Shown here piece after piece: positions 7,635-56,117 of a stretch of DNA of 64,000 nt; the stretch's first letter is position 1; every line of letters starts with the position of its first letter. This stretch comes from an uncultured Bacilli bacterium (GTDB lineage: Bacteria; Bacillota_I; Bacilli_A; RF39; UBA660), in assembly GCA_964018915.1 (NCBI GenBank), contig CAXHRJ010000001.1, positions 544,636-608,635 on the forward strand, given 5' to 3'. Position numbers and translations under genes: made by a program. A model generated the notes under the pieces. The model was given only the letters and a program-made list of their open reading frames with translations. It was not told where the DNA came from and made no database searches.

Positions 7635-7649
7635 AAATCCTCACCCTTC

Positions 7650-7949
7650 TTATAATATTTCCAATATTTGTTTTAATATTGCTTCATCTTTTACACATTC
7701 TTTTATTTTTTCTGTTTTTTTATAAAATGCTAACTTCTCTTCATAATATTTCAATTTTTCTTCTATTGCTACTAATGTTTTATGAACTGCATTCTTACTA
7801 ATACCATTTAAATCTGCAATTTCTTGCAAAGTTAAATTCTCAAAATAGTAAGATTCAAATAAACTTTGCTGCTTCTCTGTAAGCAATTCTCCATAGTAAT
7901 CATATAATGTATTTAAATAAATAGTCTCATCAATCATAATAACTCCCAA
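7650..7949 (-). CDS. ylxM: YlxM/p13-like putative DNA-binding protein (sigma-70 region 4-like HTH) of the ftsY-ffh cluster
   Basis: ~100 aa, LTEKQQ..FE.YY.E.LTLQEIA....ISKNAV motif typical of YlxM; position immediately downstream of ftsY. Confidence 0.85.
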   Translation of the reverse strand: MGVIMIDETIYLNTLYDYYGELLTEKQQSLFESYYFENLTLQEIADLNGISKNAVHKTLVAIEEKLKYYEEKLAFYKKTEKIKECVKDEAILKQILEIL

Positions 7950-8254
7950 ATAGTAGAAACTAATGTAATCATTCCAAAAACTACATATAGAATTGCTAGT
8001 TTCTTCTTATTTGTTATTTTATAATGATTCCATGCCATCGTAAATAAAGTAAGAGATAGCATTGCATATAAAAGAGGCATTAATTCTTTTACAAATAGAG
8101 TTACTACCCCTGATATTAAAACACCGATTACAAAAACAATTTGTAATGTAATACTAATCGGTTGCTTCTTTGGTTTTAATTCAATAACTTCTACACTATT
8201 CATAACTACCTCACATATCTTTAAATAGACCATAGATATATTTTTCAATATCAA
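7934..8254 (-). CDS. small membrane protein (3 predicted TM helices)
   Basis: Hydrophobic composition only; overlaps ftsY stop and ylxM start, so may be co-transcribed. Confidence 0.35.
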   Translation of the reverse strand: MILKNISMVYLKICEVVMNSVEVIELKPKKQPISITLQIVFVIGVLISGVVTLFVKELMPLLYAMLSLTLFTMAWNHYKITNKKKLAILYVVFGMITLVSTIWELL

Positions 8255-9185: not shown

Positions 9186-9271
9186 GCTGATTCCTCCTTA
9201 TAATGTTCCATTACCATTTTATCATAAATAAGTAAAAAAAGAAAAGATATTTCCACTTTTCTTTTCCACTA

Positions 9272-9715
9272 TTAAGCAACTTTTTTCTTCTGCTTTTCTT
9301 TATCTTCTACTTTTGTTACTTCCCCTAATTCTATTATCATTTTACTTGGAATATGATAAGAAAAATTTATAGCTAAATGTGTATCTGCCATATCATAGAA
9401 AGTATCGTATTCTTCCATTTTACAACCGATTGTTTCTTCATCTTGCTTATCTACTGTAAATCCATAAAAACGCCCCTGTAATAAAAAATAATAATCTGCC
9501 ATATCCTCAATAGATAAGAGTTCTTTCGCAATCTCTCTATTATGTTTAGTAAATTCACTTTCTATAATCCAGTTAGGATTATTAGACATACAAGAATAGA
9601 AGGCAAAAATAAGTCTTAAAGTATCATCCATTTGAAAGAAACGGGAATGTCTATCTTTCATATTTACCTCCTTTAGTAGCGATTTTATAATAGTATATTT
9701 TTGAATATAAGTCAA
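9272..9715 (-). CDS. hypothetical protein
   Basis: ORF only; divergent from rnj; no recognisable motif. Confidence 0.35.
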   Translation of the reverse strand: MTYIQKYTIIKSLLKEVNMKDRHSRFFQMDDTLRLIFAFYSCMSNNPNWIIESEFTKHNREIAKELLSIEDMADYYFLLQGRFYGFTVDKQDEETIGCKMEEYDTFYDMADTHLAINFSYHIPSKMIIELGEVTKVEDKEKQKKKVA

Positions 9716-17789: not shown

Positions 17790-17995
17790 GTATCATGATG
17801 AAGGGACGATTTATCGCGGTACCACCCTTCTTCATAATACTTCTATTATGCACTTCAATCTTTAACGCAGATAACGTCTCCTTAGAGAAGCTCCAAAGCA
17901 AGTTCATAGCCATCCATCAAAAGTTTTCACCAACCACTTTCTCTCTATAGATATTAGACTACTACTACTCTTTTTCTTCGCTTTATGACTAATAT
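17790..17995 (-). promoter_or_regulatory. T-box riboswitch leader (Leu specifier, CUU) with terminator/antiterminator
   Basis: Minus-strand AAGGGUGGUACCGCG T-box sequence (plus strand cgcggtaccaccc at 17815-17827), followed by a long imperfect hairpin and U8. Upstream AGAGAG...GGUGA stem I elements and AUGAACUUG specifier-loop-like sequence. Confidence 0.7.
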
Positions 17996-30094: not shown

Positions 30095-30152
30095 TTTTCA
30101 TATCTTTTTCATTCTATTTTTTATATAAAATTTTACATACATATATTAGCCA

Positions 30153-30593
30153 TTAACCTCTATAGGTATCCTCTTCTTCATATCCACCCATATAATAAAT
30201 GTCTACATCGTAAAATGCGCCTATTTGATGAAAAAAATCTATATCTTTTGGATTCAAATATACTGATGGACACTGACTTCCATATATTTCAATAACTAAA
30301 GAAAAAACAAAATCACAATTCCATTTTTGCTTTATTTGTTGAAGTTCTTTTGTTTTAGGCAATAACTTCCTAATTAACTTCCTTAATGGTTTACAAGAGT
30401 CTGGAGAGAATTCATATTTAGTTGATATCTCCCATCTGCCAACTTTTTTTGATATTGGAAAAGATACACTTTTATCATTTCTATTAAATGATTCATCTGG
30501 TGTTATTTCTAACAATTGAGTAATAATATCCGTATTAATATTTTTTCCTTCTATACAAAACTCTGCTTTTACTAAAGATTTCCATTCTTCCAT
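30153..30593 (-). CDS. putative immunity protein of the terminal orphan toxin cassette
   Basis: ATG 7 nt after the stop of the degenerate orphan C-terminal module; position equivalent to other immunity genes in the array. Confidence 0.45.
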   Translation of the reverse strand: MEEWKSLVKAEFCIEGKNINTDIITQLLEITPDESFNRNDKSVSFPISKKVGRWEISTKYEFSPDSCKPLRKLIRKLLPKTKELQQIKQKWNCDFVFSLVIEIYGSQCPSVYLNPKDIDFFHQIGAFYDVDIYYMGGYEEEDTYRG

Positions 30594-30602
30594 TCATGCA
30601 CC

Positions 30603-31149
30603 TCATTTTATCTTTATATATGTATTGATTCCCCCATGTTGTGCGCCTCTAGGAAAAATCCATATGTAGCCATCATCCTTATTTAAATATATATCACAAC
30701 GAGAACCATTTTTTTAAATCCATATTCTTTTTTAAAGGAGTGTATAAAACAGTTGCAGTTGTTCCAATAACAATAGCTATTCCAATAGCAATATCATCCG
30801 CTATTGCTATCATACCACTAGGATCACTAAACATAATAGGATTGTTACTACAATACACATATAGGTTATATTCTAAGATATCTCCATTTGCTCCTAATAT
30901 ACTATCAGCACTTATAAATCTTCCTAAAGTTGGATTATAGTATCTACTATTTAAATAATATAGATTAGTTTCTGTATCATAGTAGTATCCTCTATATCTA
31001 TATGGGTTTATATCTCCTATATTATCTTCTGTTAGATTATTTACTGTTACTACTCCCCATGTGTTATATGTATAGTTTGCTACAGCATTAAATTCAAAAT
31101 CTAATATCTCTATTATATCACCTTGTATGTTTTTTACAAAGTAATATAT
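30603..31149 (-). pseudogene. orphan Rhs core 3' fragment + degenerate C-terminal toxin module (frameshifted)
   Basis: Bases 30818-31149 are near-identical to the 3' end of the main rhs core (…YYFVKNIQGDIIEIL…RYYNPTLGRFISADS…MFSDPSG). After PSG the frame gives 41 aa then a stop. A +2 frame continues (DDGYIWIFPRGAQHGG...) to a TGA 7 nt before the next ATG. Confidence 0.5.
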
Positions 31150-31159
31150 GTTATTATAA

Positions 31160-31215
31160 AGAAAAAGAATTGATCTTTTTATTCAATTCTTTCTTCATTT
31201 TTTATGGAGTTTTAC
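31160..31215 (-). terminator. terminator downstream of immunity gene 31225-31719
   Basis: GAAGAAAGAATTGA...TCAATTCTTTTTCTT hairpin then T-rich run; orphan core repeat begins immediately after. Confidence 0.45.
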
Positions 31216-31224
31216 TTAATTTTA

Positions 31225-31719
31225 TTAAATATCATAATCTATAGATAAACTATCAAAAAGTTTGTCTATAGTAACATAATATAATTGCAAATCATCATAA
31301 GCCATATTATAACAAGTTTCGTCATACTCAACTTTATCTAAATCTGATAAATATTTTTTAGTTAATATATCTATATATTCTCTAATTCCCATATTAAAGT
31401 TTAAATTAACTGACATAAGTTTCATTATATCATTAATGCAACTTTTTATACTATCTAATGTATCGTCTGATAAAAAACTCAAAGTATCATTCAAAATACA
31501 TTCCAAGTAATCAATACGCTTTTGTGGTGAAACATGCAAAGTTGAAGTTCCAATAATATATCCTAATGTTATTTCTTTGAACTTTTTTTCTTGACTTACA
31601 AATTTATTTTTTAATTTTGATTTTCTTAAGCATTCAATGCTTTTAAAGAATACTAATTCTCCCACTTCAACAACATTAACTTTTGTATGTCTAAGAAACA
31701 TATAATTACCTCCTATCAT
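31225..31719 (-). CDS. putative immunity protein for orphan toxin CT2
   Basis: Start overlaps the orphan toxin stop (ATGA), typical toxin-immunity coupling. Confidence 0.5.
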   Translation of the reverse strand: MIGGNYMFLRHTKVNVVEVGELVFFKSIECLRKSKLKNKFVSQEKKFKEITLGYIIGTSTLHVSPQKRIDYLECILNDTLSFLSDDTLDSIKSCINDIMKLMSVNLNFNMGIREYIDILTKKYLSDLDKVEYDETCYNMAYDDLQLYYVTIDKLFDSLSIDYDI

Positions 31720-32611
31720 GGTTTATAATGATGATGATAGCCATCTTTAGGATCCCACTCAAATCGAAAGATACTACCATAGTTTCCACTTTTTTTATAG
31801 CCTGAGATGTTTATAAATGTTAACCCAGGTCTATTATATTTTAATTCAAAACTAGGATTTCTATAAAGAAATTCTACATTTTTTATTTTATACCCATTAC
31901 CATTATTGATTTTAGGAAATTTTCCTGATTTTACTGATGTATCAACCACTACACTACTTAATAATATAGGCCCTGCAATATCATTTCCTAAACTATAACC
32001 AATGTTGTACCAATTACCACTTTTTATTGCACCAGAAACATTATTATATATATTTCCAATTACTTTATGTGGAAGCCAATTTCCACTTGTAATATATGAA
32101 ATTGAAGAATCAAATGTTCCTACGGGGTCAGTCACTGCTTCATATGCAAATTTAAATGGAAATGTAACTGTATCAATAGTACAATCGCCTATTCCTACTA
32201 ATAAACCATGACTAAATTTTACAGCATCTTTTCCAAATTTCTTAGCTCCTTCTACTAAATCATCTAGAAAAGAATTTCCAGAAGAATCACTAAACATAAT
32301 AGGATTGTTACTACAATATGCATATTGGTTATATTCTAAGATATCTCCATTTGCTCCTAATATACTATCAGCACTTATAAATCTGCCTAAAGTTGGACTA
32401 TAGTATCTACTATTTAAATAATATAGATTAGTTTCTGTATCATAGTAGTATCCTCTATATCTATATGGGTTTATATCTCCTATATTATCTTCTGTTAGAT
32501 TATTTACTGTTACTACTCCCCATGTGTTATATGTATAGTTTGCTACAGCATTAAATTCACAATCTAATATTTCTATTATATCACCTTGTATGTTTTTTAC
32601 AAAGTAATATG
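31716..32611 (-). CDS. orphan Rhs core 3' fragment fused to an alternative C-terminal toxin domain (unknown type)
   Basis: Bases 32285-32611 are ~95% identical to the main rhs 3' core. They encode …DPIMFSDSSG, then a 185-aa C-terminal domain (GN/W-rich, ends GYHHHYKP) with no similarity to the GIY-YIG tip. The frame is open through the repeat. Confidence 0.6.
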
Positions 32612-32617
32612 CTTCTA

Positions 32618-32656
32618 CTAATAATAAAAAGAAACTGTTGCAATCCAGTTTCTTTC
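32618..32656 (-). terminator. rho-independent terminator after immunity paralog 32663-33679
   Basis: AAAGAAACTG-gattgcaa-CAGTTTCTTT perfect 10-bp stem followed by U-rich run on minus strand. Confidence 0.65.
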
Positions 32657-32662
32657 AAACTT

Positions 32663-33679
32663 CTATAATAAACCTCTTTTTTTTAAGAATTCCTCTATTC
32701 TTTTATCTTTCTCTTCTCTGTTAATTCCTCTTTTTTCCCAATAATCTAATTGATAAATTTCAGCCTGTTTTAAGTTATAATTTTTGTATGATTCAATTAC
32801 CGAATATTCTAAAGACTTCCACAAAACATTCTTTTCAAGACTTGTTGTCGTAAAACTTCCTTTATTAGAAACATTATATTCAATTTTTGGAAAAACTATT
32901 TTGTTATCAAAATTTCCTATATATTGTAATTCTTTTGGAATTACCCTTTTTGACGATGTAAGTATTTGAAATTCATAGAAAGGTGTGAGTTTATTTTCAT
33001 CTTTTGGCTGTCTCAGATCGTCTACAGTAACATCTACTATATACTTGTACATATATGTATATAGACCACTTTGAATATATTCTAATTCATTTATTTCTTC
33101 TACTGTTGTTGGTATCTTTCCTTTTTTGGTTACTTTTATTTTTACCACTGGCATTATACTTTCCAAATAGCAATTGGACATTCTTACCACAATTAAAATC
33201 AAATATTGACTATCTAGTCCTACTTTCTTCGCTTCTTCACTTTTTAATGGATATGCAAATACATCCCCTATTTGCCATTCACATTTATATGGTTTTCCAT
33301 AACTTTTTACTTTCTTTTCTGAAGATTGTGGAGTATTTAACTTTTCTTTTAATTCTAATAATACCCTTTTTCGTTGTTCTAATAACTTAGAATTTTCTTC
33401 CCATCTTTTTAAATCTATTTCGCTATCTATTACTTTAATTGCATTTTCCTTTACTTTATCTAAAAGCCTTCCATATTTCCATTGAATATCTGACAATGCA
33501 AGCCAAAAGATTGATTCTTCCTCCTCATCCTTATGACTTGTATATTCTTCTATTAACTTTTCTGTTATTTCTTCATTACTTATACCTTTTCTCAATGCTT
33601 CTATATATTCTTCTTTTACATCGTATGCTACATCATCTTGGTATAATTTTACTCCCCATGATCCCATATTATCCTCCAT
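32663..33679 (-). CDS. immunity protein paralog (shared N-terminal WGVKLYQDDVA domain + C-domain homologous to 37182-38165)
   Basis: MEDNMGSWGVKLYQDDVAYDVKEEY…, and C-part YGKPYKCEWQIGDVFAYPLKSEEAK…PVVKIKVTKKGKIPTTVEEINELEYIQS closely matches the cognate immunity protein of the main toxin. Confidence 0.6.
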   Translation of the reverse strand: MEDNMGSWGVKLYQDDVAYDVKEEYIEALRKGISNEEITEKLIEEYTSHKDEEEESIFWLALSDIQWKYGRLLDKVKENAIKVIDSEIDLKRWEENSKLLEQRKRVLLELKEKLNTPQSSEKKVKSYGKPYKCEWQIGDVFAYPLKSEEAKKVGLDSQYLILIVVRMSNCYLESIMPVVKIKVTKKGKIPTTVEEINELEYIQSGLYTYMYKYIVDVTVDDLRQPKDENKLTPFYEFQILTSSKRVIPKELQYIGNFDNKIVFPKIEYNVSNKGSFTTTSLEKNVLWKSLEYSVIESYKNYNLKQAEIYQLDYWEKRGINREEKDKRIEEFLKKRGLL

Positions 33680-33764
33680 ATATGTTTATTATATCATAAC
33701 TTTATTTATAAAAAGAAAAGAACTGAATTATTTTCAGTTCTAAATATAATCAAAATTAATTGAT

Positions 33765-34010
33765 TTATTCTCCATCGTTATACTCTATTTCCTCACAAAT
33801 AACATTAATTTCATTTCCAGACTTTAAAGTTACCAATACTTCTATTTTTCCACTCTCTTCTTTTAATTTTGCTTGATGAACAATATGATTTTCTTTACAA
33901 AAATGATTATAAAGCTCTTCAATTTTTGATTTAGCATCTAATACCTCTACAAAGTATATGTGCTGAACTGGGCCAAAAAAATCACAAGATTGAATATTTA
34001 AATAGATCAC
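33765..34010 (-). CDS. small hypothetical protein in immunity array
   Basis: ORF only. Confidence 0.3.
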   Translation of the reverse strand: MIYLNIQSCDFFGPVQHIYFVEVLDAKSKIEELYNHFCKENHIVHQAKLKEESGKIEVLVTLKSGNEINVICEEIEYNDGE

Positions 34011-34199
34011 ATGATTAAACCTAACTTTTATCTTTTTTTCTTTAACTCATTCTAAATTTGTTACAGATATTTCTATTGTTCGTCTTCTGTAATCATAATT
34101 AAAATCTTCTAATCCATCATTTAATAAATCTAATTTTTTAAGATTTGTTCGTTTTCTTTATTTTTCATTTTCTCACCTTTAATTCAAAAGTTTCAAACT

Positions 34200-35032
34200 C
34201 TATTTTTGAATTAAATCATCTTTTTTTCTTTCCATTTCTGAAATAAGATAATCTTCAAAATTATAAATATTTAACATTGCTACCCCAATTTCTAAACCTT
34301 GTGGATATTTTGTATTAACATCATATTCTAACATACTAATATCATTTGATAAAACAAGAAAACCTGCTTTTTTAAAATCCTGATTATTAAAGCATATTAC
34401 TGCAAATCTATCATCATTTTTTAAACTAGAATTTACAAATTTTAATTCATCAATATTAGGAATATTTCTTTCATCACCAATAAAATTATATAGACTTATC
34501 ACAGGACTTTCATTACAAAATTTATCTTTAGGAATATTATAATAATATTCCTCCTTAATTGCAATTACTCTAAATAATACAAATTTATGATACCATTTAT
34601 GATTCTTAAACTTTTCATCTTTAATTTGATATAGTAATAAGTCTCCTTTTTTAAAAGGGGATAAATAAGAAACTAATTTAGAAACCTTTTTAATAAATGG
34701 CTGTGGTTTCTGCAATTTCTTTTTTAAATCTATCAACACTTTTTTCTTGCATCTAATAGATTTAAATCATCAACCCATTTTTCCAAATCTTTTCCACTAT
34801 CTATATAAGTAATTGCATTTTCCTTTACTTTATCTAAAAGTCTTCCATATCTCCATTGAATATCTGCTAATGCAAGCCAAAAAATTGGTTCATCATCAGA
34901 TAATTCATACTCTTTAATCATAGATTCAGTAACTTCATCATTACTAAGACCTGCTCTTAATTTAATAATATACTCTTCTTTTACATCACATGCTACATCA
35001 TCTTGATATAATTTTACTCCCCATGCTCCCAT
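34200..35032 (-). pseudogene. frameshifted immunity-protein paralog (N-domain ORF 34733-35032 + C-domain ORF 34200-34739)
   Basis: N-part MGAWGVKLYQDDVACDVKEEY…DARKKC stops. The overlapping -1 frame continues LIDLKKKLQKPQPF…, aligning with KRKKVLEELKEKLNTPQP of the intact paralogs. A single indel near 34735 would restore a ~280-aa protein. Confidence 0.55.
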
Positions 35033-36018
35033 ATATTATCCTCCAATGTTTTTTCAACTATTCTTCTTATATAATCATCAGGATCATCTTTCAATGAAAT
35101 AAAAATGTCTAACATAGTATCATCAAAAAACTTTGATAATACGGATAAAGCACCTACCCTTAAATATGGAGTATCTAAATCTTGTAAATATAAATTTCTA
35201 TATTTGCTGCTTGATTCAATATTTCTTCCCTTCAAATATAGTCTTTCTTCTCCTTCGATTTCAAGATCTATACGAATTAAATCTACTCTACCTTTTTCAT
35301 TGACATCTTGCACTAATTGCTCTAAATTATATAACCAATTGCTATCTTTATTTTCTATAGCTATATTAATACTTTGTTTTAAAGAATCTTCCAAGATTAT
35401 TTTTGAAATTTTCTTAAGTCTTGATAAAATCTGAGAAGACCCATACCAATTTAAATCTTGTAACCACATCATTATTTTAGGCAAAAATTTTTCCAATTCC
35501 TTATCAGATTTACTACATACAATTTTTGAGCAATTTTCCCATACCCTCTGTTCGTATTGAGGAACATATGGTTGAATAAATATTTCAAAGTTTGCTAGTT
35601 TCTTTCCTATTTCTATTCCATCATTTTGAAGTTCAACGTCATTTTCATAATCTAACATCTTCAATATCAAAAATCTATTATCAGCAGCTTCAACTTTCTC
35701 TAATATTTCTTTCTTTTTTTCTGATTCTTCCAATAAATCTATTAACCATAAGGTCCATATGTATTTTTTATTAATTAAAGTTTCTTCTATTTTTATTTCT
35801 AATTTTTCATTTATTATTTTTTTAGAAAAACTTTTTAATCTATAATAGATTATAAGAGCTCCTGGAGTATCTATATTTTCAATCCAGTCAAACATTACTG
35901 GCAAAAAAGATATCAACTCTTCATCGTTTTTTGTAGATATAATTCTAGCATACTTATCCCAATCCTTTTTATTTTGTTTTAATAAAAAATGATTAAACAT
36001 CGTATTTATATCCATCAT
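35014..36018 (-). CDS. immunity-like protein with internal tandem duplication (two ~150-aa repeats)
   Basis: Repeated KDWDKYARIISTKNDEELISFLPVMFDWIENIDTPGALIIYYRLKSFSKKII / VWENCSKIVCSKSDKELEKFLPKIMMWLQDLNWYGSSQILSRLKKISKIIL segments; located inside orphan immunity array. Confidence 0.4.
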   Translation of the reverse strand: MMDINTMFNHFLLKQNKKDWDKYARIISTKNDEELISFLPVMFDWIENIDTPGALIIYYRLKSFSKKIINEKLEIKIEETLINKKYIWTLWLIDLLEESEKKKEILEKVEAADNRFLILKMLDYENDVELQNDGIEIGKKLANFEIFIQPYVPQYEQRVWENCSKIVCSKSDKELEKFLPKIMMWLQDLNWYGSSQILSRLKKISKIILEDSLKQSINIAIENKDSNWLYNLEQLVQDVNEKGRVDLIRIDLEIEGEERLYLKGRNIESSSKYRNLYLQDLDTPYLRVGALSVLSKFFDDTMLDIFISLKDDPDDYIRRIVEKTLEDNIWEHGE

Positions 36019-36019
36019 T

Positions 36020-36192
36020 TTAACACTTCCTTACTAAACCAGAGTTTGAAGAACAAGTGTTCCTTTGTGCCCTTTCAGTAATCTCATCCTTACTAAATCC
36101 TGCTCTTAATTTAATAACATATTCTTCTTTTACATCACTTGCTACATAATCTGGATATAATTTTACTCCCCATGCTCTCATATTATCCTCCA
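36020..36192 (-). pseudogene. truncated remnant of the shared immunity N-domain
   Basis: Encodes MEDNMRAWGVKLYPDYVASDVKEEYVIKLRAGFSKDEITE then diverges. It stops 1 nt before the ATG of 35014-36018. Confidence 0.45.
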
Positions 36193-36283
36193 TATGTGTT
36201 TATTATATCATGCATTTATTAATATAAAGAAAAGAACTGAATAAAATCAAGCTCTTTTGCAAAATAAAATATTAATACCTTTT

Positions 36284-37150
36284 TTATAACTTTGATAAAT
36301 CATCTATTGTTATTGGAATTTCTGTAGAAAAGAAACTATTAAATTCAATTCCAATAGATTTTAAATATTCATATTCTTCTCTATTTTCACATTCTATCCA
36401 ACAAACTTTTTCATGTGCCTCAGAGCATAACCAGCATTTATCATCTTTATAAAAACATATATCCATTATACCTTTTGGAAAATCCCAATCATATATAGAA
36501 TCTTTCATAGATACTAGTTCATCGTACATAGTATCATCCAAACAAAATATATATTCTGTTCCATAAAGAGGCAAAGTTCTACAATCACTAATGTGTTTTT
36601 GTTCTAACATTCTTTCTTCAAAAAAAGAATCTATTTTTTTTAAAAAGTGAGAATGATTTCTTTCAATAAACCTTTCAATATTATAATCATAATAAAGCCA
36701 TTCTAATGTATATTTAATTGAAAATAAAAGATTACTGTTAATATAGAAAAAATCAATTGGAAATGAACTATTTGGGCCAAATTCTAAAATTTCGGAAAGA
36801 CAATATTTTTTTATTTCAATATTATCACTATATTTTTTAGCAATATTCTCTATTTCTTCATAAGAAAAATTGATATTTAAATTTCTTTCAGGAAATATTA
36901 CACTTCTTATCTTCTCATGGAATTTTCTATTTTGACCATATCTCCTAAAAAATGATACAATATTGCATTTTTGAATAGCGTATCTTATTAAATTTTTATA
37001 AATTTCAAATGTCATATTAGAAACATCTACATCCACTATTTTACCTCCATTTATACCATATATGAGGATGATTTGGGATTCCATTAACATGAAGATGACG
37101 ATAATATCCTGGAATACCATTTCCGTGGGTTTTATCCTCATAAAAGTCAT
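36284..37150 (-). CDS. hypothetical Cys-containing protein in immunity array
   Basis: ORF only, 31 bp downstream of cognate immunity gene. Confidence 0.35.
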   Translation of the reverse strand: MTFMRIKPTEMVFQDIIVIFMLMESQIILIYGINGGKIVDVDVSNMTFEIYKNLIRYAIQKCNIVSFFRRYGQNRKFHEKIRSVIFPERNLNINFSYEEIENIAKKYSDNIEIKKYCLSEILEFGPNSSFPIDFFYINSNLLFSIKYTLEWLYYDYNIERFIERNHSHFLKKIDSFFEERMLEQKHISDCRTLPLYGTEYIFCLDDTMYDELVSMKDSIYDWDFPKGIMDICFYKDDKCWLCSEAHEKVCWIECENREEYEYLKSIGIEFNSFFSTEIPITIDDLSKL

Positions 37151-37181
37151 CTAATTTTATACTAGATCTTTAACCAAATAA

Positions 37182-38165
37182 TTAAATAATATTTTTAGAT
37201 TTTTTTATTTCTTCCATAATTTTCTCTCCACGTAATCTGCACTCCTCTAAATATTTCTTTCTTTCTTCCCAAAAATTTGGAGCATATATACTACCTTTCC
37301 TTAAATTATAAAACTTATAATTATTAATTACTTTAGTTTCAATTTCTTTCCAATCCAACACGTTCTCGGCAAAATCTTTCATATTAACCATATATTCTAT
37401 TTTAGGTTTTTTTATCTGATTATTAAAATTTCCTATAAATTGTAAACTTTTAGGAATGACTCTATTTGAAGTAGTAATTATACTAAATTCATATTCCGGG
37501 GTAAAACCATACTCATCCTTTGGTAATTTTTGAGCACTTTTCCTTACACTAAAATCAGCCAAATAAACATTACTTTGGATATATTCTAGCTCATTTATTT
37601 CTTCTACTGCTGTTGGAATTTTTCTATTTTTTGTTATTTTTATTTTTACTACTGGAATAATATGTTCTGGATACCATTTTGTTTCTCCTGTTTTTATAAG
37701 TATTAAGTATTGTCCTTCAAAACCAGCTTCTTTTGCTTCTTCACTTTTTAATGGATAGGCAAATACATCGCCTATTTTCCATTCACATTTATATGGTTTT
37801 CCATAACTTCTTACTTTCTTTTCTGAAGGTTGTGGAGTATTTAACTTTTCTTTTAATTCTTCCAATACTTTTTTTCTCTTCCCATATAGTTTAGGATTTT
37901 CATCCCATCTTTCTAAATCCACTTCGCTATCTATAAATTTAATGGCATTACTTTTCACCTCTTGTAATAATCTACCATAATTCCACTGCGTATCTGCAAG
38001 TGCAAACCAAAAGATTGGTTCATCATCTATATCTCCCGTATACTCATTTATTAGTTTTTCAGTTATTTCTTCATTACTTATACCTTTTTTTAATGCTTCT
38101 ACATATTCAGTTTTTACATCACATGCTACATCATCTTGGTATAACTTTACTCCCCATGATCCCAT
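37182..38165 (-). CDS. cognate immunity protein of the Rhs GIY-YIG toxin
   Basis: ATG 3 nt after the rhs stop with RBS GGAGGA inside the last rhs codons; N-terminal MGSWGVKLYQDDVACDV domain shared with paralogs. Confidence 0.65.
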   Translation of the reverse strand: MGSWGVKLYQDDVACDVKTEYVEALKKGISNEEITEKLINEYTGDIDDEPIFWFALADTQWNYGRLLQEVKSNAIKFIDSEVDLERWDENPKLYGKRKKVLEELKEKLNTPQPSEKKVRSYGKPYKCEWKIGDVFAYPLKSEEAKEAGFEGQYLILIKTGETKWYPEHIIPVVKIKITKNRKIPTAVEEINELEYIQSNVYLADFSVRKSAQKLPKDEYGFTPEYEFSIITTSNRVIPKSLQFIGNFNNQIKKPKIEYMVNMKDFAENVLDWKEIETKVINNYKFYNLRKGSIYAPNFWEERKKYLEECRLRGEKIMEEIKKSKNII

Positions 38166-38168
38166 ATA

Positions 38169-41100
38169 TTATCCTCCTACATACGTTTCATGTTCTAAAT
38201 CCCACCAATTGTTCGCTGCATCCAGATAAATATCTCTCTTTGGATTTTTTAATGAAATCCCATGAATTTGATTATTTGCCTTATTAAATTCGTTTAAAGT
38301 TCTATATTCTATTATTTTAGTTTCCTCTAATCCCCTCGCAGCATTTAAAGTCATTGGTCCATAAATATTTAATGCTCTCATCTCTAAATGTTTTCGGTAA
38401 GGATTCCTTCTATGTCTTCTTTTCGTTTCTGCTAAATCTTTAGTTCTACCAACGTATTGAACTTTATCGTTACTATCCGTTAATAGATAAACATAATAGG
38501 CTTTTGGACCTTCATCTTTTCTCTGTTTACGATCTCTAGATACTGACGATTTAATTGCAATGTCAGCTTCCCTTACTCCACTGGCAATAGTCGATATCCC
38601 TCTTCCTAGTGCCTTCACACCTTCTACAACAAATGGAATAGTCAAAGGAATTAATGGTACTAATTCTAAAGGAATAGCAAACTCTCCACTAGGATCACTA
38701 AACATAATAGGATTATTACTACAATACGCATATAGGTTATATTCTAAGATATCTCCATTTGCTCCTAATATACTATCAGCACTTATAAATCTTCCTAAAG
38801 TTGGATTATAGTATCTACTATTTAAATAATATAGATTAGTTTCTGTATCATAGTAGTATCCTCTATATCTATATGGGTTTATATCTCCTATATTATCTTC
38901 TGTTAGATTATTTACTGTTACTACTCCCCATGTGTTATATGTATAGTTTGCTACAGCATTAAATTCACAATCTAATATCTCTATTATATCACCTTGTATG
39001 TTTTTTACAAAGTAATATGTCTGATTATTTACTATTAATCCAGATACTCCACTTTCATCATATAGATATTCTATTATTTCTCCATTTCTATCTTCATAGA
39101 TAATATTATTTCCTTCTAAATAGTAATTCGTTGTTTTGCCATTTATTACTTTCTTTGTTCTTATTCCTTCTACGTTGTATTCATACTCATATTGATTATT
39201 ATCTTGACTAATAGTTTTTAATTCGTTTCCATTTGTCCATGTATAATTATATCCATTATAACTTGTCATATTTCCTATAGAATCATAAGTTATTGGTTTT
39301 TCATTAAATTGAGTTAATTGATCTTTCCAATTATTATCATATTGATATTCACCTAATATATTGGTAGAAGATGGTGTTTGTGCATCTACGATAAAATCAG
39401 TAGGAGGTACTTTAAGCATTGGAGAAAAAGCTAACGCATCCATTGTATAATTATTTTGATACTTTTGTATTAAATTACCACCTGAATCATAAGAATACCC
39501 TATATAACTATAAAACTTTCCAGAATACTCTCTTTTTAATTGGTTTAAAGAATCGTAAGAATATCTTTTTTGGTAGTTACCATTTTTTTTAATTGTCAAA
39601 ATATTTCCATTCGCATCATAAGTATACTCTAATTTCGTAGTACCATTAGTAATCCTTTTTAATAGTGTAGTTGTTTTATATTCATCTACATCATAGTATT
39701 CATAAGTTGTTGTATAGGTTTTATCATCTCTTATGATTTCTTTTTTTATTAATCTATCTAATTTATCATAAGTATAATGAACACTATAATCAGGATAAGT
39801 AATAGTTACTAATTTATCATCTGCATCATAGGTATAAGATACTTCTTTTTCTTTAGAATTATAGTTATATTTTACTTTATCTAAGTTGTTATATTGATCA
39901 TACTGATATTGTTTCTTAAAATTATTTTCTTTAATGCTAGTTATTCTACCACTTAAATCATAAGTATAATAGATATCATTATTTAAATAGTTTAAATGAG
40001 ATAAATATCCTCTATTGTTATAAGCATAAGTTGCAGTTCCTGTTGTATTTGTTTTTTTACTAATTCTACCAAAAGTATCATATTCATAATTTATTGTATC
40101 ATTATTTCCATAGATACTTTTTAGTAAATATCCATTATTTGCTTCATATTGATGAGTTATTAGTGGACTACCTGCTACTTTAATAGAAGTAGTATTTCCA
40201 TACTCATCACGTACAAAATCATAATCAAAATTATTATGGGTTATTTTAGTTAAGTAATCTTTATCATAAGTATAAGAATTGGTAGTATTACCACTTTTTA
40301 TTTGGGTTATATTATCATTAATATCATAAGTATATTCTGTTGCAATTCTTTTTGCATCTACTACTTCTGAAACAGTTCCTCTATTCTCATTATAAGTAGT
40401 AGTTACTTCATACCCTCTTTGATCAATTACTTTGTTTTGATAATTTCCATTTTCTGTATATTCTGCTTTTGTTTCGATATATTTATTTTGTCCATCCACT
40501 GGATAAATCATAAATTTTTGGGCATCTGTTAGATTACATTGATACTGTTGGATATTTCTACCTTTTTCATATATAGCTCCATGAATATCTATACAACTTT
40601 TATAATCTGTTATTTTAGTTTGAAAATAAAATGTTCCATCATTATTATTAGATAATTTATATTTTTGACTATTACTATTACTCTTATTAGATAACAAGAT
40701 ACTGATACTATTAGCAGTATTAGAATCTTTTACTGTTAAAGCTTTTTCATTTTCATCTACTATGAAATAATCTTCTCCAGTTTTTATAAATTTCCATGTC
40801 TTTTTTCCATCAATTAATTCTACATTTGAGTCTTTATCTCCCACTACTAAATTGGTTGCTACTGGCTTTATATAATAATAAGTATTTTCTTCTATGTCAT
40901 CAGTAGATCTAATCATAGATGGTTCTGTTATCTTATTACTAGTAACATTACCATAATCATCATACTCATAACTAGATGTTAATCCATTTTGATTAAATGC
41001 TTGCAATAATCTATTGGTATGATTATAGTCATACTCATAATAAAACATTCTGCCTTTTGGATTCAATGCCCCTATTAGTTCATTTTTCTTACTATAATAA

Positions 41101-44100
41101 TACCTACTATTTTGGTTTGCTAAATCGGATGTACTGATAACATTACCATTTTCATCATAGGTATAACTACTTCCCTTTTCATCTTTATATACACCTATAT
41201 TAGAAAAATAAGAATATGAGGTATTATAGTTATACGCTAAAATCACTTTAAGACTTTCATAATCCTGTTTAGCAACAAAGTTATCACTCAAATATTGCCA
41301 TTCACTTGTATCACTTAACACACTAATTACTTCTGAATATAAAATATTACCACTTCCATCTAAGTACTGAAAAACTAATTTATCAGCCTTAGAATTACCT
41401 ATCGGAGAACCATTATTCTTTGCCCAAAAACTAACATTAAACGAATCTCCTTTTTTACCACTTATTGGAATTATTTTATACAGATGTTTCCATTTTTCCA
41501 TTTCTCCATACATTTGAAAAGCATTAATTCCACGAATAGTAACTACTTTATCATTACTTCCAAGATTAGCTTGTCTTTCCCAATCAGAAGCTCCATTAGA
41601 AAAATTGCCATTATCTACTAAATTATAAGGATTGGTAACATTTCCTTCTTCCAATTGAATGTTATCTACTAAAATACTACCCACATCAAAGATTGCAATT
41701 CCTACTTTTGTATTACTAACAGAATCAGTTGGAATTGTAAATGTTTTACTATATCTATCATAGTTAGCATTTATTTTGATAGGTCCTAAAAATTCATGAT
41801 GATAAGTCCCACTAGAATCCTTATATTCATAAAAGTAATAAGCATCTATATTTCCTTTTATATAAGCAGATAAAGTATAAGTTCCTCCTGCATTCATAGG
41901 AACTGATTGCCATAAAATAGGATTACTGTTTTCTACTATTGATTCTATTTTAAAACTGTTACTACCAATATATCCATCTTTTATAACACTTACATTTCCA
42001 TTATTAACTCCCCAATTAGAAACATTCCAATAATTTAAATTCTTCTCGGCAGAACTATTTAAAATCTCATTATTAGTAGATTTCACCATTTGCGTTTCTA
42101 ATAATAGTTTATTTTTAGTAGAACCACTAGTACCATATTGATATGACACGCCGTATGCATTCTTCAAAGAATTATTCTTATCTAAACTATTAATGCTTAA
42201 TGTCTGTCCTAAATTATTAAAAGTATAATTTTCTAAATTTCCTTTATTATCTTTAAAACTAGTAGTATTACTTCCATATTTCATAGTAATGGAATTTCCT
42301 ACAGTTCCTTTATTTCCATATTCAGTTACTGATTTTACTCGATAAGGAGACTTAGAATGATAAGTGTAAGAAACAGAACTACCATCTACATTTATTACTT
42401 TTGATAATAATTTATTAGTATATTGATATTCTGTTTTTAAACTATCTGGATAGGTAATACTAGTTAGATTATTAGAGTTATATCCATACTTATAAACTCT
42501 ATTATCTACATCCGTTATACTTGTTAATAAATTATTAGTATAAGTAAGTGTTAAGGTATCTCCTACTGCATCCTCCACACTTGTAATAAGATTATAATTA
42601 GATCCATAATTAATAGTAATCTTATTATCATTAGTATCTTTTATTTCTTTTAAATACCACTTACCATTATTTTTTATAAAAGTAGAAACATTGCCACCTT
42701 TATCTTTCATAATATAATTAGTACCACTAGTTGTAATTGTTAAATCTAAGCCATCTTCATCTTTCCATGTACCAGATTCTTGATAGAAATAATGTCTAGT
42801 AGCATCTTCATCAATATATAATAAGTAATTGATACCTGATATCGTTTTTGCTTCTATTGTTTGATTAAGATTTAATCGAAAACCATTTCCATATCCTATG
42901 TTAGTCTCTTTATCATTGGTATTATAAACATGATTAATACTAACTGGTAATCTACTACCAGGAGTTGATGCATCCCTATGAATAAGTGTTAAATTTCCAT
43001 TGTAATCATTTGTCATAGTTGTAGTTCTACCAATACTTTGGGTATGTGTAGTTAAATAATTTTCTAAGCCTGTTTGATTTCTATATTGAATAATAATATA
43101 CGGTCTTTTATAAGTATAAGCACTTGATGTATCACTAGAAATAAAGGATACATCATTTCTACCACTTACTTTCTTTTCTACATGCTCTTTTAATAATAAC
43201 CCATAATTATTTCCACTTACATACCAATCTTTTACTAAACTAGTAATATCAGCAGTATTCTCTTTATTTTGATTATTAGAATCATAAGAATATTTTATAT
43301 AATCTACAATTTGAGAATTGTAAGAATCTTTCATATTATTCCAATAAGCATTAGATTCATTCCAATCTTTTGTAACTGCATGAATATCAATTTGAATATT
43401 TCCACTAGGTGGTGTCCAATCATTCGTATTTTGATAATTAAAGATATGTAGTTCAGCTGCGATTACTTGATCACCACTAGTAAGGGTTGGTAGTTTAAAT
43501 TTAATTAAACTTCTAAAGGGATTCTTATTGGTATTAATATCACTATAGGAAGTACTTCCTACCCTCAAAATATGGGCATTTCCTTTTCCTGTATTCGATG
43601 CATCATTAGGATAAATATACGTATCTACTATATCATCCCTATTAGGACTTGTAGCTATAATAGGATCAATGGTAATTGGAAATATTCTCTCTTTAGAATT
43701 TAACCAATTAGAGTCTGCCTGTAATGTAATCTCATATCCCTCTTCTACCTTTTTTGGAGTTAAGGTAATATCTGAACTAAATTCTAAATTAGAATCATAC
43801 ATTACTGGAGCACTTACATAAAATACTTCTTTCCCCTCTTTATCTAAAAATACTAATTCATTTTTTGTTAACTGTTTTACCACTAAATCTTTTGTAGTTA
43901 AAGAATAAACAAAAGTATCTTTTATAGATTCTTTATTCCCTATAATAATATTTTCTTCTATTCTATCAGAAACTAATTCATACTCTAAATCAATATCCTT
44001 TAAAACTTCAGAATACTCTATTTTTGATTCTAAAGAAGGAATAGAATAAAGTCCTGAACTAGTTAAAAAATCTTTTTCTATAGTTCCATTTGCTTTTTCT

Positions 44101-44525
44101 ATATTTTTCATTTTCCATGAAATTTCATGTTCTTTATAATTTATAGTTAATAAACTTTCTTCTTTTGAAAATTCAGATACTATATTGCTTCTTTTCGTTT
44201 TAAATCCTGAAGAAGTAGATACTAAGGTATTATCAATATCTACTAGTTTTCCATCTTCCTCATAATGAACTGCTTCTGGATAAATAACAGCTTTAATAGA
44301 GCCATCCTCTAATAAATAATGCTTTTCATTAATTGTTCTTTTTTCTAGAATTTCTCCTACTACTGATACTTCTTTTTCAGTATCATTCAATTCTGTTTTT
44401 AATTCCAGTTTACTTTTCTGTCCTTCTTTTTCTAAAAAAAAAGCAAAAGCTACTACTGGACAAGCATTTATTAAAATGGAAATAATCCATATATAAATGA
44501 GTCCATGCTTAAAAATACTTCTCAT
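38169..44525 (-). CDS. Rhs/YD-repeat wall-associated polymorphic toxin (WapA-like) with C-terminal GIY-YIG nuclease domain
   Basis: Signal peptide from MRSIFKHGLIYIW (ATG at 44525, RBS AGAGGAG). Lectin/CBM-like and ricin-B-like N-terminal regions (QQYQCN..QKF). Dozens of YD repeats (YTYDANGN, YEYD, YQYD). Rhs core end RYYNPTLGRFISADS…DPIMFSDPSGEF. C-terminal YYVYLL…VQYVGRTKDLAETKRRH matches the GIY-10aa-YIG…R nuclease signature (cf. UvrC VYRM…VIYVGKAKDLKKR). Confidence 0.9.
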   Translation of the reverse strand: MRSIFKHGLIYIWIISILINACPVVAFAFFLEKEGQKSKLELKTELNDTEKEVSVVGEILEKRTINEKHYLLEDGSIKAVIYPEAVHYEEDGKLVDIDNTLVSTSSGFKTKRSNIVSEFSKEESLLTINYKEHEISWKMKNIEKANGTIEKDFLTSSGLYSIPSLESKIEYSEVLKDIDLEYELVSDRIEENIIIGNKESIKDTFVYSLTTKDLVVKQLTKNELVFLDKEGKEVFYVSAPVMYDSNLEFSSDITLTPKKVEEGYEITLQADSNWLNSKERIFPITIDPIIATSPNRDDIVDTYIYPNDASNTGKGNAHILRVGSTSYSDINTNKNPFRSLIKFKLPTLTSGDQVIAAELHIFNYQNTNDWTPPSGNIQIDIHAVTKDWNESNAYWNNMKDSYNSQIVDYIKYSYDSNNQNKENTADITSLVKDWYVSGNNYGLLLKEHVEKKVSGRNDVSFISSDTSSAYTYKRPYIIIQYRNQTGLENYLTTHTQSIGRTTTMTNDYNGNLTLIHRDASTPGSRLPVSINHVYNTNDKETNIGYGNGFRLNLNQTIEAKTISGINYLLYIDEDATRHYFYQESGTWKDEDGLDLTITTSGTNYIMKDKGGNVSTFIKNNGKWYLKEIKDTNDNKITINYGSNYNLITSVEDAVGDTLTLTYTNNLLTSITDVDNRVYKYGYNSNNLTSITYPDSLKTEYQYTNKLLSKVINVDGSSVSYTYHSKSPYRVKSVTEYGNKGTVGNSITMKYGSNTTSFKDNKGNLENYTFNNLGQTLSINSLDKNNSLKNAYGVSYQYGTSGSTKNKLLLETQMVKSTNNEILNSSAEKNLNYWNVSNWGVNNGNVSVIKDGYIGSNSFKIESIVENSNPILWQSVPMNAGGTYTLSAYIKGNIDAYYFYEYKDSSGTYHHEFLGPIKINANYDRYSKTFTIPTDSVSNTKVGIAIFDVGSILVDNIQLEEGNVTNPYNLVDNGNFSNGASDWERQANLGSNDKVVTIRGINAFQMYGEMEKWKHLYKIIPISGKKGDSFNVSFWAKNNGSPIGNSKADKLVFQYLDGSGNILYSEVISVLSDTSEWQYLSDNFVAKQDYESLKVILAYNYNTSYSYFSNIGVYKDEKGSSYTYDENGNVISTSDLANQNSRYYYSKKNELIGALNPKGRMFYYEYDYNHTNRLLQAFNQNGLTSSYEYDDYGNVTSNKITEPSMIRSTDDIEENTYYYIKPVATNLVVGDKDSNVELIDGKKTWKFIKTGEDYFIVDENEKALTVKDSNTANSISILLSNKSNSNSQKYKLSNNNDGTFYFQTKITDYKSCIDIHGAIYEKGRNIQQYQCNLTDAQKFMIYPVDGQNKYIETKAEYTENGNYQNKVIDQRGYEVTTTYNENRGTVSEVVDAKRIATEYTYDINDNITQIKSGNTTNSYTYDKDYLTKITHNNFDYDFVRDEYGNTTSIKVAGSPLITHQYEANNGYLLKSIYGNNDTINYEYDTFGRISKKTNTTGTATYAYNNRGYLSHLNYLNNDIYYTYDLSGRITSIKENNFKKQYQYDQYNNLDKVKYNYNSKEKEVSYTYDADDKLVTITYPDYSVHYTYDKLDRLIKKEIIRDDKTYTTTYEYYDVDEYKTTTLLKRITNGTTKLEYTYDANGNILTIKKNGNYQKRYSYDSLNQLKREYSGKFYSYIGYSYDSGGNLIQKYQNNYTMDALAFSPMLKVPPTDFIVDAQTPSSTNILGEYQYDNNWKDQLTQFNEKPITYDSIGNMTSYNGYNYTWTNGNELKTISQDNNQYEYEYNVEGIRTKKVINGKTTNYYLEGNNIIYEDRNGEIIEYLYDESGVSGLIVNNQTYYFVKNIQGDIIEILDCEFNAVANYTYNTWGVVTVNNLTEDNIGDINPYRYRGYYYDTETNLYYLNSRYYNPTLGRFISADSILGANGDILEYNLYAYCSNNPIMFSDPSGEFAIPLELVPLIPLTIPFVVEGVKALGRGISTIASGVREADIAIKSSVSRDRKQRKDEGPKAYYVYLLTDSNDKVQYVGRTKDLAETKRRHRRNPYRKHLEMRALNIYGPMTLNAARGLEETKIIEYRTLNEFNKANNQIHGISLKNPKRDIYLDAANNWWDLEHETYVGG

Positions 44526-44550
44526 AACATACTCCTCTACTTTCCCTTTC

Positions 44551-44578
44551 ATTATAATATATAGGGTATATAAGTCAA
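44551..44578 (-). promoter_or_regulatory. sigma-A-type promoter of the rhs gene
   Basis: Minus strand TTGACT (plus 44573-44578) - 16 nt - TATAAT (plus 44551-44556), ~25 nt upstream of the rhs ATG. Confidence 0.55.
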
Positions 44579-44584
44579 TGAGAT

Positions 44585-44660
44585 ATGTTCGAAATGTCCA
44601 AAATCGTGTTCGAAATGGTAGAAAGACGATTTCAGACACAGTTTTAACCATTTCAAACAC
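44585..44660 (-). promoter_or_regulatory. operator-like repeat: two direct copies of TGTTCGAAATG(G) 21 bp apart plus an inverted partial copy, abutting the rhs -35
   Basis: Plus strand tgttcgaaatg at 44585-44595 and tgttcgaaatgg at 44606-44617. Inverted variant catttcaaacac at 44649-44660. TTCGAA core is palindromic. Confidence 0.35.
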
Positions 44661-44689
44661 AAAAAAAGAAATGAATAACCATTTCTTTA
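44655..44689 (-). terminator. rho-independent terminator of nrdG
   Basis: Minus strand AAAGAAATG-gttatt-CATTTCTTT hairpin overlapping the nrdG stop, followed by U7. Confidence 0.5.
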
Positions 44690-45249
44690 TACGTATAAAC
44701 CTTCTGCATGACATCTTCCATAAGTAGTTAGTTCTTCTACTTCATCAAAATCAGCAAGAACTACTGTATTTTGTTCTAAACTTTTCTTTACATCTATAAT
44801 TCTTTGATTACTAGAACCTCTAAATTTTAAGCTATAACTATGTCTAGACATAATAAATTTACCATCTACTAAGATATCAATTTGCTTTAAAAAATCCATA
44901 ATAGATTTCTTTTTTTTACTCATAATCATCAATTGTTCAAAAGTAAACCCTGTATAACACCAAACATCCATATTATTTTCATGAACACTTTTTGCGATAA
45001 TTGCACAAGCTTCTGGTTGATAGAAAGGATCCCCTCCGCTAAATGTTACTCCAGTTTGAGCCTCTAAATAACCAATCTCTTCTACAATTTCTTCTACTTC
45101 TTCTTCGAATCCACCATTAAAATCATGAGTCCCTGGATTATGGCATCCAGGACAATTATGCCCACATCCTTGTGTCCATAAAACTGTCCTAATACCTGTT
45201 CCATCTACTACACTATCTAATTGTAAATCACTCGCTAAACGTATTTTCA
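44687..45249 (-). CDS. nrdG: anaerobic ribonucleoside-triphosphate reductase activating protein (radical SAM)
   Basis: CGHNCPGCHN radical-SAM Cys cluster. Probable start MKIRLAS at 45249, whose ATG overlaps the TAA of the upstream 60-aa ORF (TAATG). Confidence 0.9.
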
Positions 45250-50860: not shown

Positions 50861-50986
50861 ATTATCCTCCTTTTATTAATCTAAGACTCGCCATTAAGGT
50901 CCTTCTCATAATCTACCTATCCGTGCGGTTGTAGAATGAGGCTCTACACAGTATTAAATTTTAACACACAATCCTTTTTTTGTCAA
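50861..50986 (-). promoter_or_regulatory. rplU promoter (TTGACA-17-TGnTAAAAT) and structured 5' leader (putative L21 autoregulatory leader)
   Basis: Minus-strand TTGACA (plus 50981-50986), extended -10 TGTTAAAAT (plus 50958-50966). ~95-nt leader with hairpin UGUAGAgccucauUCUACA, strong RBS AAAGGAGGA. Confidence 0.45.
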
Positions 50987-55764: not shown

Positions 55765-56117
55765 AACACTTCATAAGCCATGTTCTGTACCACTTGGGTG
55801 GCAAACATCTATCTACCAATTTCTTGGTCCCTAACTCCGTTTCGTTCCTTTGTTAAAGCTCCCCTACCAAAATTTGGGTTTCTCGCTCGTGGGGTTTACC
55901 GCGTTCCACTTCCTTCATTTCTGAATTTTTCGTCACTTTGGCACTTTTACACCTACTAAAGCCATATCTTAAGACTTAGGCTTCCTTGGAGCCGTTAGTT
56001 AAAAACTACTAGGGGTTATTTTTTCCCCCTACACGAACACTACAATCATTTCAGACTGTGCGAGCATGGACTTTCCTCTATATATACAATATATAGCGTT
56101 TGCCCAAAGTATTATTC
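55765..56117 (-). ncRNA. rnpB: RNase P RNA, bacterial type B
   Basis: Minus strand contains GAGGAAAGUCCAUGCUCGCACAG (P4), GUGCCAAAGUGACGAA, GUGGAACGCGGUAAACCCC, GAGCGAGAAACCCAAAUUUUGGUAGGGG, GUAGAUAGAUG. These are near-identical to B. subtilis RNase P RNA. P1 pairs 5' AAUAAUACUU with 3' AAGUGUUAUU. Adjacent gpsB as in Bacillus. Confidence 0.85.

Follow-up and report, generated by a model that had tools for sequence, protein, structure and literature searches.

One long gene dominates the stretch of DNA analysed here, a 64-kb window (64,000 nucleotides; contig CAXHRJ010000001.1, positions 544,636 to 608,635) from an uncultured Bacilli bacterium, with a G+C content of ~28%. The gene lies on the minus strand and encodes a protein with the layout of an Rhs/WapA-type polymorphic toxin, and it is followed by a putative cognate immunity gene and by an array of orphan toxin ends and immunity-like genes (Table 1). 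Its maximal open reading frame (ORF) spans 38169-44714, and the likely start is the ATG at 44525, which has the ribosome-binding site (RBS) AGAGGAG just before it and gives a product of 2118 aa. The sequence TTGACT-16-TATAAT further upstream (44578-44551) is the top promoter-like match of the region. In the public annotation of GCA_965646225.1, which is taken to be the same genome, the start is identical and the product also has 2118 aa. The setting is one of chromosomal housekeeping genes, with nrdD/nrdG upstream of the locus and fmt and Mur ligase genes downstream.

The toxin and its predicted GIY-YIG tip

The original prediction for this locus, made from the sequence without database searches, was of an Rhs/YD-repeat toxin with a DPxG core boundary. 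Profile searches bear this out, as the RHS repeats match PF05593 of Pfam (E=7.6e-19) and TIGR01643 of NCBIfam (E=5.6e-14), and the Rhs-associated core matches TIGR03696 (76.9 bits) and contains the PxxxxDPxG boundary motif. YD repeats are indeed present, but a strict YD-motif regular expression counts 12 of them in the toxin and not the dozens that had been supposed. The lectin that had been placed at the N terminus turned out to lie inside the repeat region, where RicinB_lectin_2 (PF14200) matches aa 1243-1328 at 32.9 bits against a cutoff of 25.6 and PF00652 stays under its own cutoff; the N-terminal module is a DNRLRE domain. The leader reaches a Kyte-Doolittle maximum of 2.33 over 19 aa (aa 12-30). 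At the other end of the shell, DPSG is the putative autoproteolysis boundary, and its G marks the end of the homology that the toxin shares with the orphan cassettes of the array and with the Rhs proteins of other species. A hydrophobic pre-toxin segment (Kyte-Doolittle 2.01) follows directly after DPSG, and comparable hydrophobic stretches are found before the nuclease in relatives and after DPxG in cassette B of the array and in two other loci, L002 from a related genome and L003 from another species. No WapA cell-wall-binding or LysM module was found in the Pfam and NCBIfam scans of the toxin. Because it lacks a wall-binding module and SecF-like/SrtB partners, we describe the protein as WapA-like in function and layout and do not file it as a WapA orthologue.

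The C-terminal ~111 aa form the tip, for which a GIY-YIG nuclease domain had been proposed. When the C-terminal tail was scanned alone, PF01541 matched it at 23.9-24.4 bits against a cutoff of 22.6, in agreement with that proposal, and no second Pfam family appeared for the tail even at E<=10. The tip family is large. A word-indexed homologue search with the tip gave a single relative, at 51% identity, but an exhaustive HMMER search with a two-sequence profile brought the number of cluster representatives to 398 at E<=1e-3, of which 202 reach E<=1e-10. Its carriers range from fragments up to Rhs proteins of ~2000 aa, and the domain lies no more than 25 residues from the carrier C terminus in 146 of the 149 top representatives, an extreme C-terminal position that is a hallmark of a polymorphic-toxin tip. 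One sequence, P0122 (5140 aa, 42 stretches), was the top match of the tip search and was dropped as a repetitive-sequence artefact.

Several lines of comparison point to the same fold. PF01541 is matched by 32 of 42 aligned relatives, with a best E of 3e-8, and no other nuclease family is matched by any of the 42. Searched against the Protein Data Bank (PDB) with phmmer, the single tip sequence gave nothing meaningful, and the family profile, run against all PDB sequences, gave eight chains, none of them below E=0.01 (the best was UvrC, E=0.016). Seven of these chains are named GIY-YIG nucleases or belong to the UPF0213 family (UvrC, T4 EndoII, I-TevI, BH0048 and Slx1), and the eighth is the N-domain of GrxS16, which we take to share the GIY-YIG fold. 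An AlphaFold2 (AF2) model of the tip has the order beta-beta-alpha-beta-alpha, with a pLDDT of 66 overall and ~75-85 in the core, and the top Foldseek matches of this model are UvrC GIY-YIG domains (probability 0.92, TM 0.58).

Across 142 tips, the residues Y11, Y22, G24, H36, E65 and N83 are 99-100% conserved. The GIY and YIG motifs read YVY and YVG in the window tip, and their residues Y11, Y22 and G24 are present in 142, 140 and 141 of the 142 tips. The metal-binding Glu, E65 (141/142), and the conserved Asn, N83 (142/142), align to the Glu/Asn region of UvrC. The tip is basic, with a pI of 9.45. It is, as predicted from its sequence, a GIY-YIG nuclease, and by analogy with the superfamily its substrate would be DNA.

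The residue that departs from the canonical pattern is the catalytic arginine. Position 32, in helix 1, is the canonical Arg site (R39 in UvrC, R27 in I-TevI), and it is Arg in 104 of the 142 tips; in these, position 35 is never Arg. Position 32 is not Arg in the remaining 38, the window tip included, and here position 35 is Arg in 37 tips and Lys in one. The window tip has Thr at position 32 and its Arg three residues on, in the same helix. The two placements are strictly mutually exclusive, an 'arginine migration' over one helical turn, and an either/or pattern so strict across the 142 tips speaks for selection that maintains the Arg function. The simplest reading would be a shift of the Arg side chain by one helical turn with catalysis retained.

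The adjacent gene and the orphan array

The gene that follows the toxin encodes a 327-aa protein and starts at 38165, 3 nt past the toxin stop codon (38169-38171), as the original prediction had stated. We found at least 244 homologues of this protein. The nearest tip (60% identity) belongs to a 2098-aa Rhs protein of the metagenome-assembled genome (MAG) MGBC118066 and has a 66%-identical homologue of the 327-aa protein 3 nt downstream, so that tip and putative immunity protein diverge together. A locus survey with one genome per species, queried with a 7-sequence tip alignment, found 22 other loci that encode the tip family, all of them in Bacillota, and the ORF directly after the tip is a member of the 327-aa family in 21 of the 22 (E 1e-15 to 1e-152). 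The sole exception is L018 (840-1100), where the tip is followed by a short unrelated ORF (MGSWNYYIEIK...) and then by genes on the opposite strand. L003 carries a divergent GIY-YIG Rhs tip (28% identity), and this too is followed by a member of the family, of 277 aa. The C-terminal half of the protein stands alone in three loci (L009, L010 and L012), and in L009 three tandem copies of it (7401-9378) come after a GIY-YIG-tipped Rhs protein. Because these three loci carry the C-domain only, it appears to be the tip-associated module. The N-domain also recurs by itself, on plasmids of Bacillus, Planococcus, Arthrobacter and Shinella, and in unrelated plasmid loci it is joined to other C-termini. 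One of the sequences handled here, the metagenome contig L007 from ENA, has Illumina adapter at 1-40 and 1460-1502 and an insert identical to MAG MGBC118066 (L008); the adapter has given rise to artefactual peptide ends in database proteins (MCSSDL... and ...SEEHTSELQSLA).

No Pfam or NCBIfam model matches the window protein. The model DUF4259 (PF14078) is reached through the N-domain by 12 of 64 relatives at E<=0.01 and by 26 of the 64 at E<=10, with the window protein unmatched, and one relative is named DUF4259 by NCBI. The Imm14, Imm26, Imm44 and Imm51 models are unmatched by all 64 family members even at E<=10. An Imm14/Imm51 fusion, of the kind mentioned in PMC3482391, was considered as the identity of the protein and rejected, since the Pfam models give it no support; a remote relation, for example of an Imm51-like N-domain joined to an Imm14-like C-domain, may still be conceivable short of profile-profile comparison. 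The AF2 model of the protein, built from 64 sequences, has a pLDDT of 93.4 and shows a helical N-domain (aa 1-108) followed by a C-domain rich in beta structure and by a long helix at the end. The pI is 4.6 for the acidic N-domain and 9.0 for the basic C-domain. A Foldseek search of the PDB with this model gave nothing (best E 0.7, TM<0.2), and the sequence profile found no relevant solved relative there. We regard the 327-aa gene as the likely cognate immunity gene of the toxin.

A comparison of related strains had been suggested as a way to look for tip switching, and L002, from a related genome, provides a case. It has the same downstream flank as the window (the 178-aa gene, fmt and the Mur ligase genes) and a core that is 77% identical, yet it carries a different tip and a different immunity gene, and its two members of the 327-aa family are present as orphans only. 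Because flank and core are shared and the tip differs, the L002 sequence is direct evidence of tip replacement at this site.

Table 1. Features of the toxin locus and its orphan array, in window coordinates
Feature	Coordinates	Strand	Evidence and remarks
Promoter-like site TTGACT-16-TATAAT	44551..44578	-	11/12, consensus match only; upstream of RBS and ATG
Rhs/WapA-type polymorphic toxin gene	38169..44525	-	2118 aa; RHS_repeat E=7.6e-19, YD_repeat_2x
Leader, MRSIFKH-GLIYIWIISILINACPVVAFA	44439..44525	-	Basic then hydrophobic; probable Sec signal peptide or anchor
DNRLRE surface domain, aa 301-479	43089..43625	-	NF033679, 74.8 bits (cutoff 34)
Ricin-type beta-trefoil lectin, aa 1243-1345	40491..40799	-	PF14200; inside repeat region
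Rhs-associated core, aa 1863-1947	38685..38939	-	TIGR03696, 76.9 bits; ends NNPIMFSDPSG
Pre-toxin linker	38505..38684	-	Hydrophobic segment aa 1949-1967, then Lys/Arg/Asp-rich spacer
Predicted GIY-YIG (URI) nuclease toxin domain, aa 2008-2118	38172..38504	-	PF01541; ~111 aa
Putative cognate immunity protein, 327 aa	37182..38165	-	DUF4259-like helical N-domain and beta-rich C-domain
288-aa acidic ORF (public annotation 250 aa), orphan immunity candidate	36284..37150	-	pI 4.9
57-aa N-terminal immunity-family fragment	36020..36193	-	62-78% identity to paralogue N-termini
334-aa protein with two DUF5071 repeats, orphan immunity candidate	35014..36018	-	PF16804, 42 bits, 2 stretches
Frameshifted immunity paralogue, 99-aa and 179-aa ORFs (34733-35032 / 34200-34739)	34200..35032	-	tblastn
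81-aa acidic ORF	33765..34010	-	pI 4.85; no Pfam/NCBIfam match
Intact 338-aa orphan immunity paralogue	32663..33679	-	64-65% identity
Orphan cassette A: core 3' end (32277-32615) fused in frame to intact 186-aa alternative tip	31716..32615	-	TIGR03696, 77.3 bits
164-aa putative cassette-A immunity gene	31225..31719	-	ATGA overlap with tip stop codon
Orphan cassette B: core 3' end and only 39 aa after DPSG	30694..31173	-	Toxin domain lost
DUF4279 (FdL-Imm5) immunity protein, 146 aa	30153..30593	-	PF14106, 68.4 bits
Transglutaminase-like gene (DUF553), 178 aa	29558..30094	+	Weak match; distal edge of island

The orphan array extends ~8 kb downstream of the toxin and comprises two core 3' ends and nine immunity-like ORFs or fragments, where the original prediction had counted at least seven. 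The 288-aa ORF matches no Pfam or NCBIfam family and has a 30%-identical homologue in another tip/immunity array, L014; homologues of the DUF5071 protein are found in the arrays L014 and L026. The frameshifted paralogue is the window's orthologue of the 277-aa gene of L003, with 78% identity over its C-part by tblastn and 71% for the joined 99+179-aa product. Its break corresponds to the loss of 1 nt in a poly-A run at 34739-34755, which reads A6 where A7 restores the frame; a true frameshift, a tract prone to slippage and an error of assembly would each account for it. A terminator-like hairpin (32627-32656) follows the intact 338-aa paralogue.

Both core 3' ends are close copies of that of the toxin. 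The core of cassette A is 96% identical in protein to toxin aa 1835-1947 (32615-32277) and 97.3% identical in DNA over 335 nt (32611-32277); for cassette B the values are 92% against toxin aa 1828-1951 (31173-30802) and 98.3% over 343 nt (31157-30815). The two displaced cassettes of the original prediction are therefore real, with 97-98% DNA identity to the toxin gene, but an alternative tip is present in only one of them: after the core, cassette B has a hydrophobic remainder with no toxin domain and then a stop codon. The cassette-A tip (31716-32297, ending ...FRFEWDPKDGYHHHYKP) has no family match and found no homologue but itself in a word-indexed search of 5.8 billion proteins, and its orthologous region in L002 is degraded and uninformative. 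The 164-aa gene that overlaps it has no family model and has a 66%-identical homologue in the syntenic array of L002, where the DUF4279 protein also has a homologue (62% identity). DUF4279 has been named as the immunity family FdL-Imm5 (PMC9424270). The description of the tips and immunity families as uncharacterised accordingly holds in part, as the 327-aa family, the cassette-A tip and the 288-, 164- and 81-aa proteins have no model, while the Tox-URI1 type of tip discussed below and DUF4279 had already been published. The repeated core itself contains a promoter-like sequence, TTGTAA-16-TATAAT with an extended TG (consensus match only), at 38983-39010 in the toxin gene and again at 32575-32602 and 31112-31139. 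Copied in this way upstream of both cassettes, the site could drive the orphan tips and immunity genes.

At the distal edge of the island, the 178-aa transglutaminase-like gene is kept at the same position in L002. Elsewhere the window contains ordinary Bacillota chromosomal elements, all on the minus strand: a class B RNase P RNA (55769-56111), a T-box leader (17799-17987) and a ribosomal protein L21 leader (50874-50940). No tRNA genes are present in the 64-kb window.

Proposed mechanism and alternative readings

In our view the window very probably contains a polymorphic toxin locus of the Rhs/WapA type, borne on the chromosome of a low-GC, Gram-positive gut member of Bacillota, with a GIY-YIG DNase tip, an adjacent immunity gene and an orphan array. 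The leader would export the 2118-aa protein through Sec, and the DNRLRE and lectin modules may display or target it. As in the rest of the family, the YD-repeat shell would enclose its own C-terminal tip, which could be freed at the DPSG that closes the Rhs core, as the motif suggests, and the hydrophobic pre-toxin segment may aid entry of the tip into a neighbouring cell. There the basic nuclease of ~111 aa, with its domain and residues as predicted from sequence, would presumably cut DNA. The cytosolic 327-aa protein, which is encoded next to the tip, would protect the producer, and its beta-rich C-domain is the probable inhibitor, acting presumably by binding. Two promoterless core copies of ~340 nt would allow a swap of tips by homologous recombination, and the additional immunity genes, paralogues of the GIY-YIG immunity gene included, may protect against the toxins of relatives.

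Several observations weigh against this explanation. Autoproteolysis is not assured because the core reads RYYNP and not the more usual Rhs core motif RYYDP, and the locus has no cell-wall-binding, sortase or SecF-like partner of the type found in Streptococcus suis to point to a route of delivery. The Pfam score of the window tip is 1.3 bits over threshold, its AF2 model was built from a two-sequence alignment, and the Foldseek E-values are weak (0.3-1). The canonical Arg is Thr in this tip, and compensation by R35 is suggested by covariation. Finally, the immunity role is read from gene order alone, because the protein has no match among the known immunity families or the solved structures.

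The last of these points leaves room for the 327-aa protein to be an accessory factor, such as a chaperone, an export adaptor or an activator, with immunity encoded elsewhere or absent. Its large size is unusual for an immunity protein, it matches no Imm family of Pfam or NCBIfam, and the occurrence of its N-domain with other C-termini in unrelated plasmid loci is what might be expected of a generic adaptor. However, the protein lacks a signal peptide, it follows the tip in sequence (60% identity for the tip and 66% for the immunity protein) and in position, directly after the tip in all but one of the surveyed loci, and versions with the C-domain only occupy that same position. Copies without a toxin occur as orphans in the arrays, as immunity genes typically do and export factors do not, and we judge the accessory role to be very improbable. 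The tip, in turn, might have a GIY-YIG fold and still be no DNase toxin, serving instead as an inactive, RNA-directed or binding module; the Thr at position 32 and the marginal Pfam score would fit such a role. This is difficult to reconcile with the presence of an Arg three residues on in 37 of the 38 tips that lack R32 and in none of the 104 that have it, a pattern which speaks for selection on the Arg function, with the invariance of the other catalytic residues and with the maintenance of a dedicated downstream gene, and we think it very unlikely.

A different concern is that the locus as a whole could be a remnant in decay that has lost its function in competition. One paralogue is frameshifted, another is a 57-aa fragment and cassette B has lost its toxin domain, the locus comes from a rare uncultured lineage, and the 90% cluster of the toxin has one member. 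The decay is, however, limited to the orphan array, where it is usual, and the 6.4-kb main ORF is intact, as is the cognate pair, and is preceded by a good promoter-like site and RBS, so that a remnant seems to us improbable. A functional toxin locus with a GIY-YIG DNase tip and a protecting neighbour is the reading that we prefer. On the more specific proposal, that the 327-aa proteins form an undescribed two-domain immunity family specific to a Bacillota clade of GIY-YIG (Tox-URI1-like) tips, with a beta-rich C-domain inhibitor whose fold has no solved relative, an acidic DUF4259-like N-domain as an optional shuffled module and a migrated Arg in the nuclease, we are evenly balanced.

GIY-YIG (Tox-URI1) Rhs tips and WapA-type loci with orphan arrays were known already, and what is modestly new is the immunity family together with the one-turn shift of the Arg. 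The locus adds a Gram-positive, Sec-type example of a GIY-YIG-tipped Rhs toxin, in what is otherwise a textbook polymorphic-toxin island that leaves general concepts unchanged. The toxin-immunity family pair, found in 21 of 22 loci, is unnamed in current domain libraries, and naming it would improve the annotation of several hundred 'hypothetical' genes of gut Bacillota. The pair is also suited to the study of how a protein may inhibit a GIY-YIG nuclease, on which we know of no structural work, and the either/or placement of the Arg offers a small natural experiment on the plasticity of the GIY-YIG active site.

Comparison with known systems

A 2012 catalogue of polymorphic toxins, those of the Rhs type included, lists URI/GIY-YIG tips as Tox-URI1 and Tox-URI2 (PMC3482391). 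The published Tox-URI1 signature of Y, YxG, R, [RK]xxE and N is present in the window tip as YVY, YVG, R, RGLE and N. The Tox-URI2 model, which we presume to be PF15653, was matched neither by the window tip, even at E<=10, nor by the 42 relatives. The tip thus fits Tox-URI1 and not Tox-URI2, a placement made by the published signature and not by a family HMM. Like the window tip, Tox-URI1 tips are borne on RHS repeats and have an immunity gene after them, and they are known from Firmicutes (PMC3482391). The partners listed for them are Imm14, Imm26, Imm44 and Imm51, with Imm54 for Tox-URI (PMC3482391); in contrast, none of the Pfam models of the listed partners matches the family described here, and the subclade of the window tip has its Arg at position 35 instead of 32. 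A mention in the literature of GIY-YIG in S. gallolyticus has no bearing on the locus.

Candidate type VI secretion system (T6SS) effectors of the form PAAR-RhsA-GIY-YIG have been proposed computationally in Salmonella, and in these, too, a GIY-YIG DNase tip is predicted on an Rhs shell (PMC11669294). They are Gram-negative and delivered by PAAR and the T6SS, whereas the window toxin is Gram-positive, has a Sec-type leader and lacks PAAR. Nearer in layout is a locus on the Bacillus toyonensis plasmid NZ_CP126517.1, with a DNRLRE-Rhs toxin, an immunity gene and an orphan array that includes a gene with a DUF4259-like N-domain and an orphan Rhs core. It differs in that its immunity gene is a barstar, which is taken to imply a barnase-type tip, and in that its DUF4259-like gene consists of the N-domain only. 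That locus (L030, 114792-126475) lies on a conjugative plasmid, its orphan Rhs core is accompanied by a YxiJ-family gene, and HBL/NHE enterotoxin genes adjoin it.

In the WapA of B. subtilis the tip is a tRNase. In S. suis, a WapA with a Sec signal, DNRLRE, Rhs and orphans has been shown experimentally to mediate competition (PMC12704120). The S. suis WapA-CT1 protein has 3158 aa, a LysM module and a NucB-like tip, with SecF-like and SrtB genes as neighbours (PMC12704120); the window toxin, by comparison, has 2118 aa, a GIY-YIG tip and an internal ricin lectin, with no LysM module found and no SecF-like or SrtB genes adjacent. Shared between the two systems are a signal-peptide-like leader, the DNRLRE domain, the YD/Rhs shell, the core, a variable tip, an adjacent immunity gene and 'Rhs orphan' cassettes (PMC12704120).

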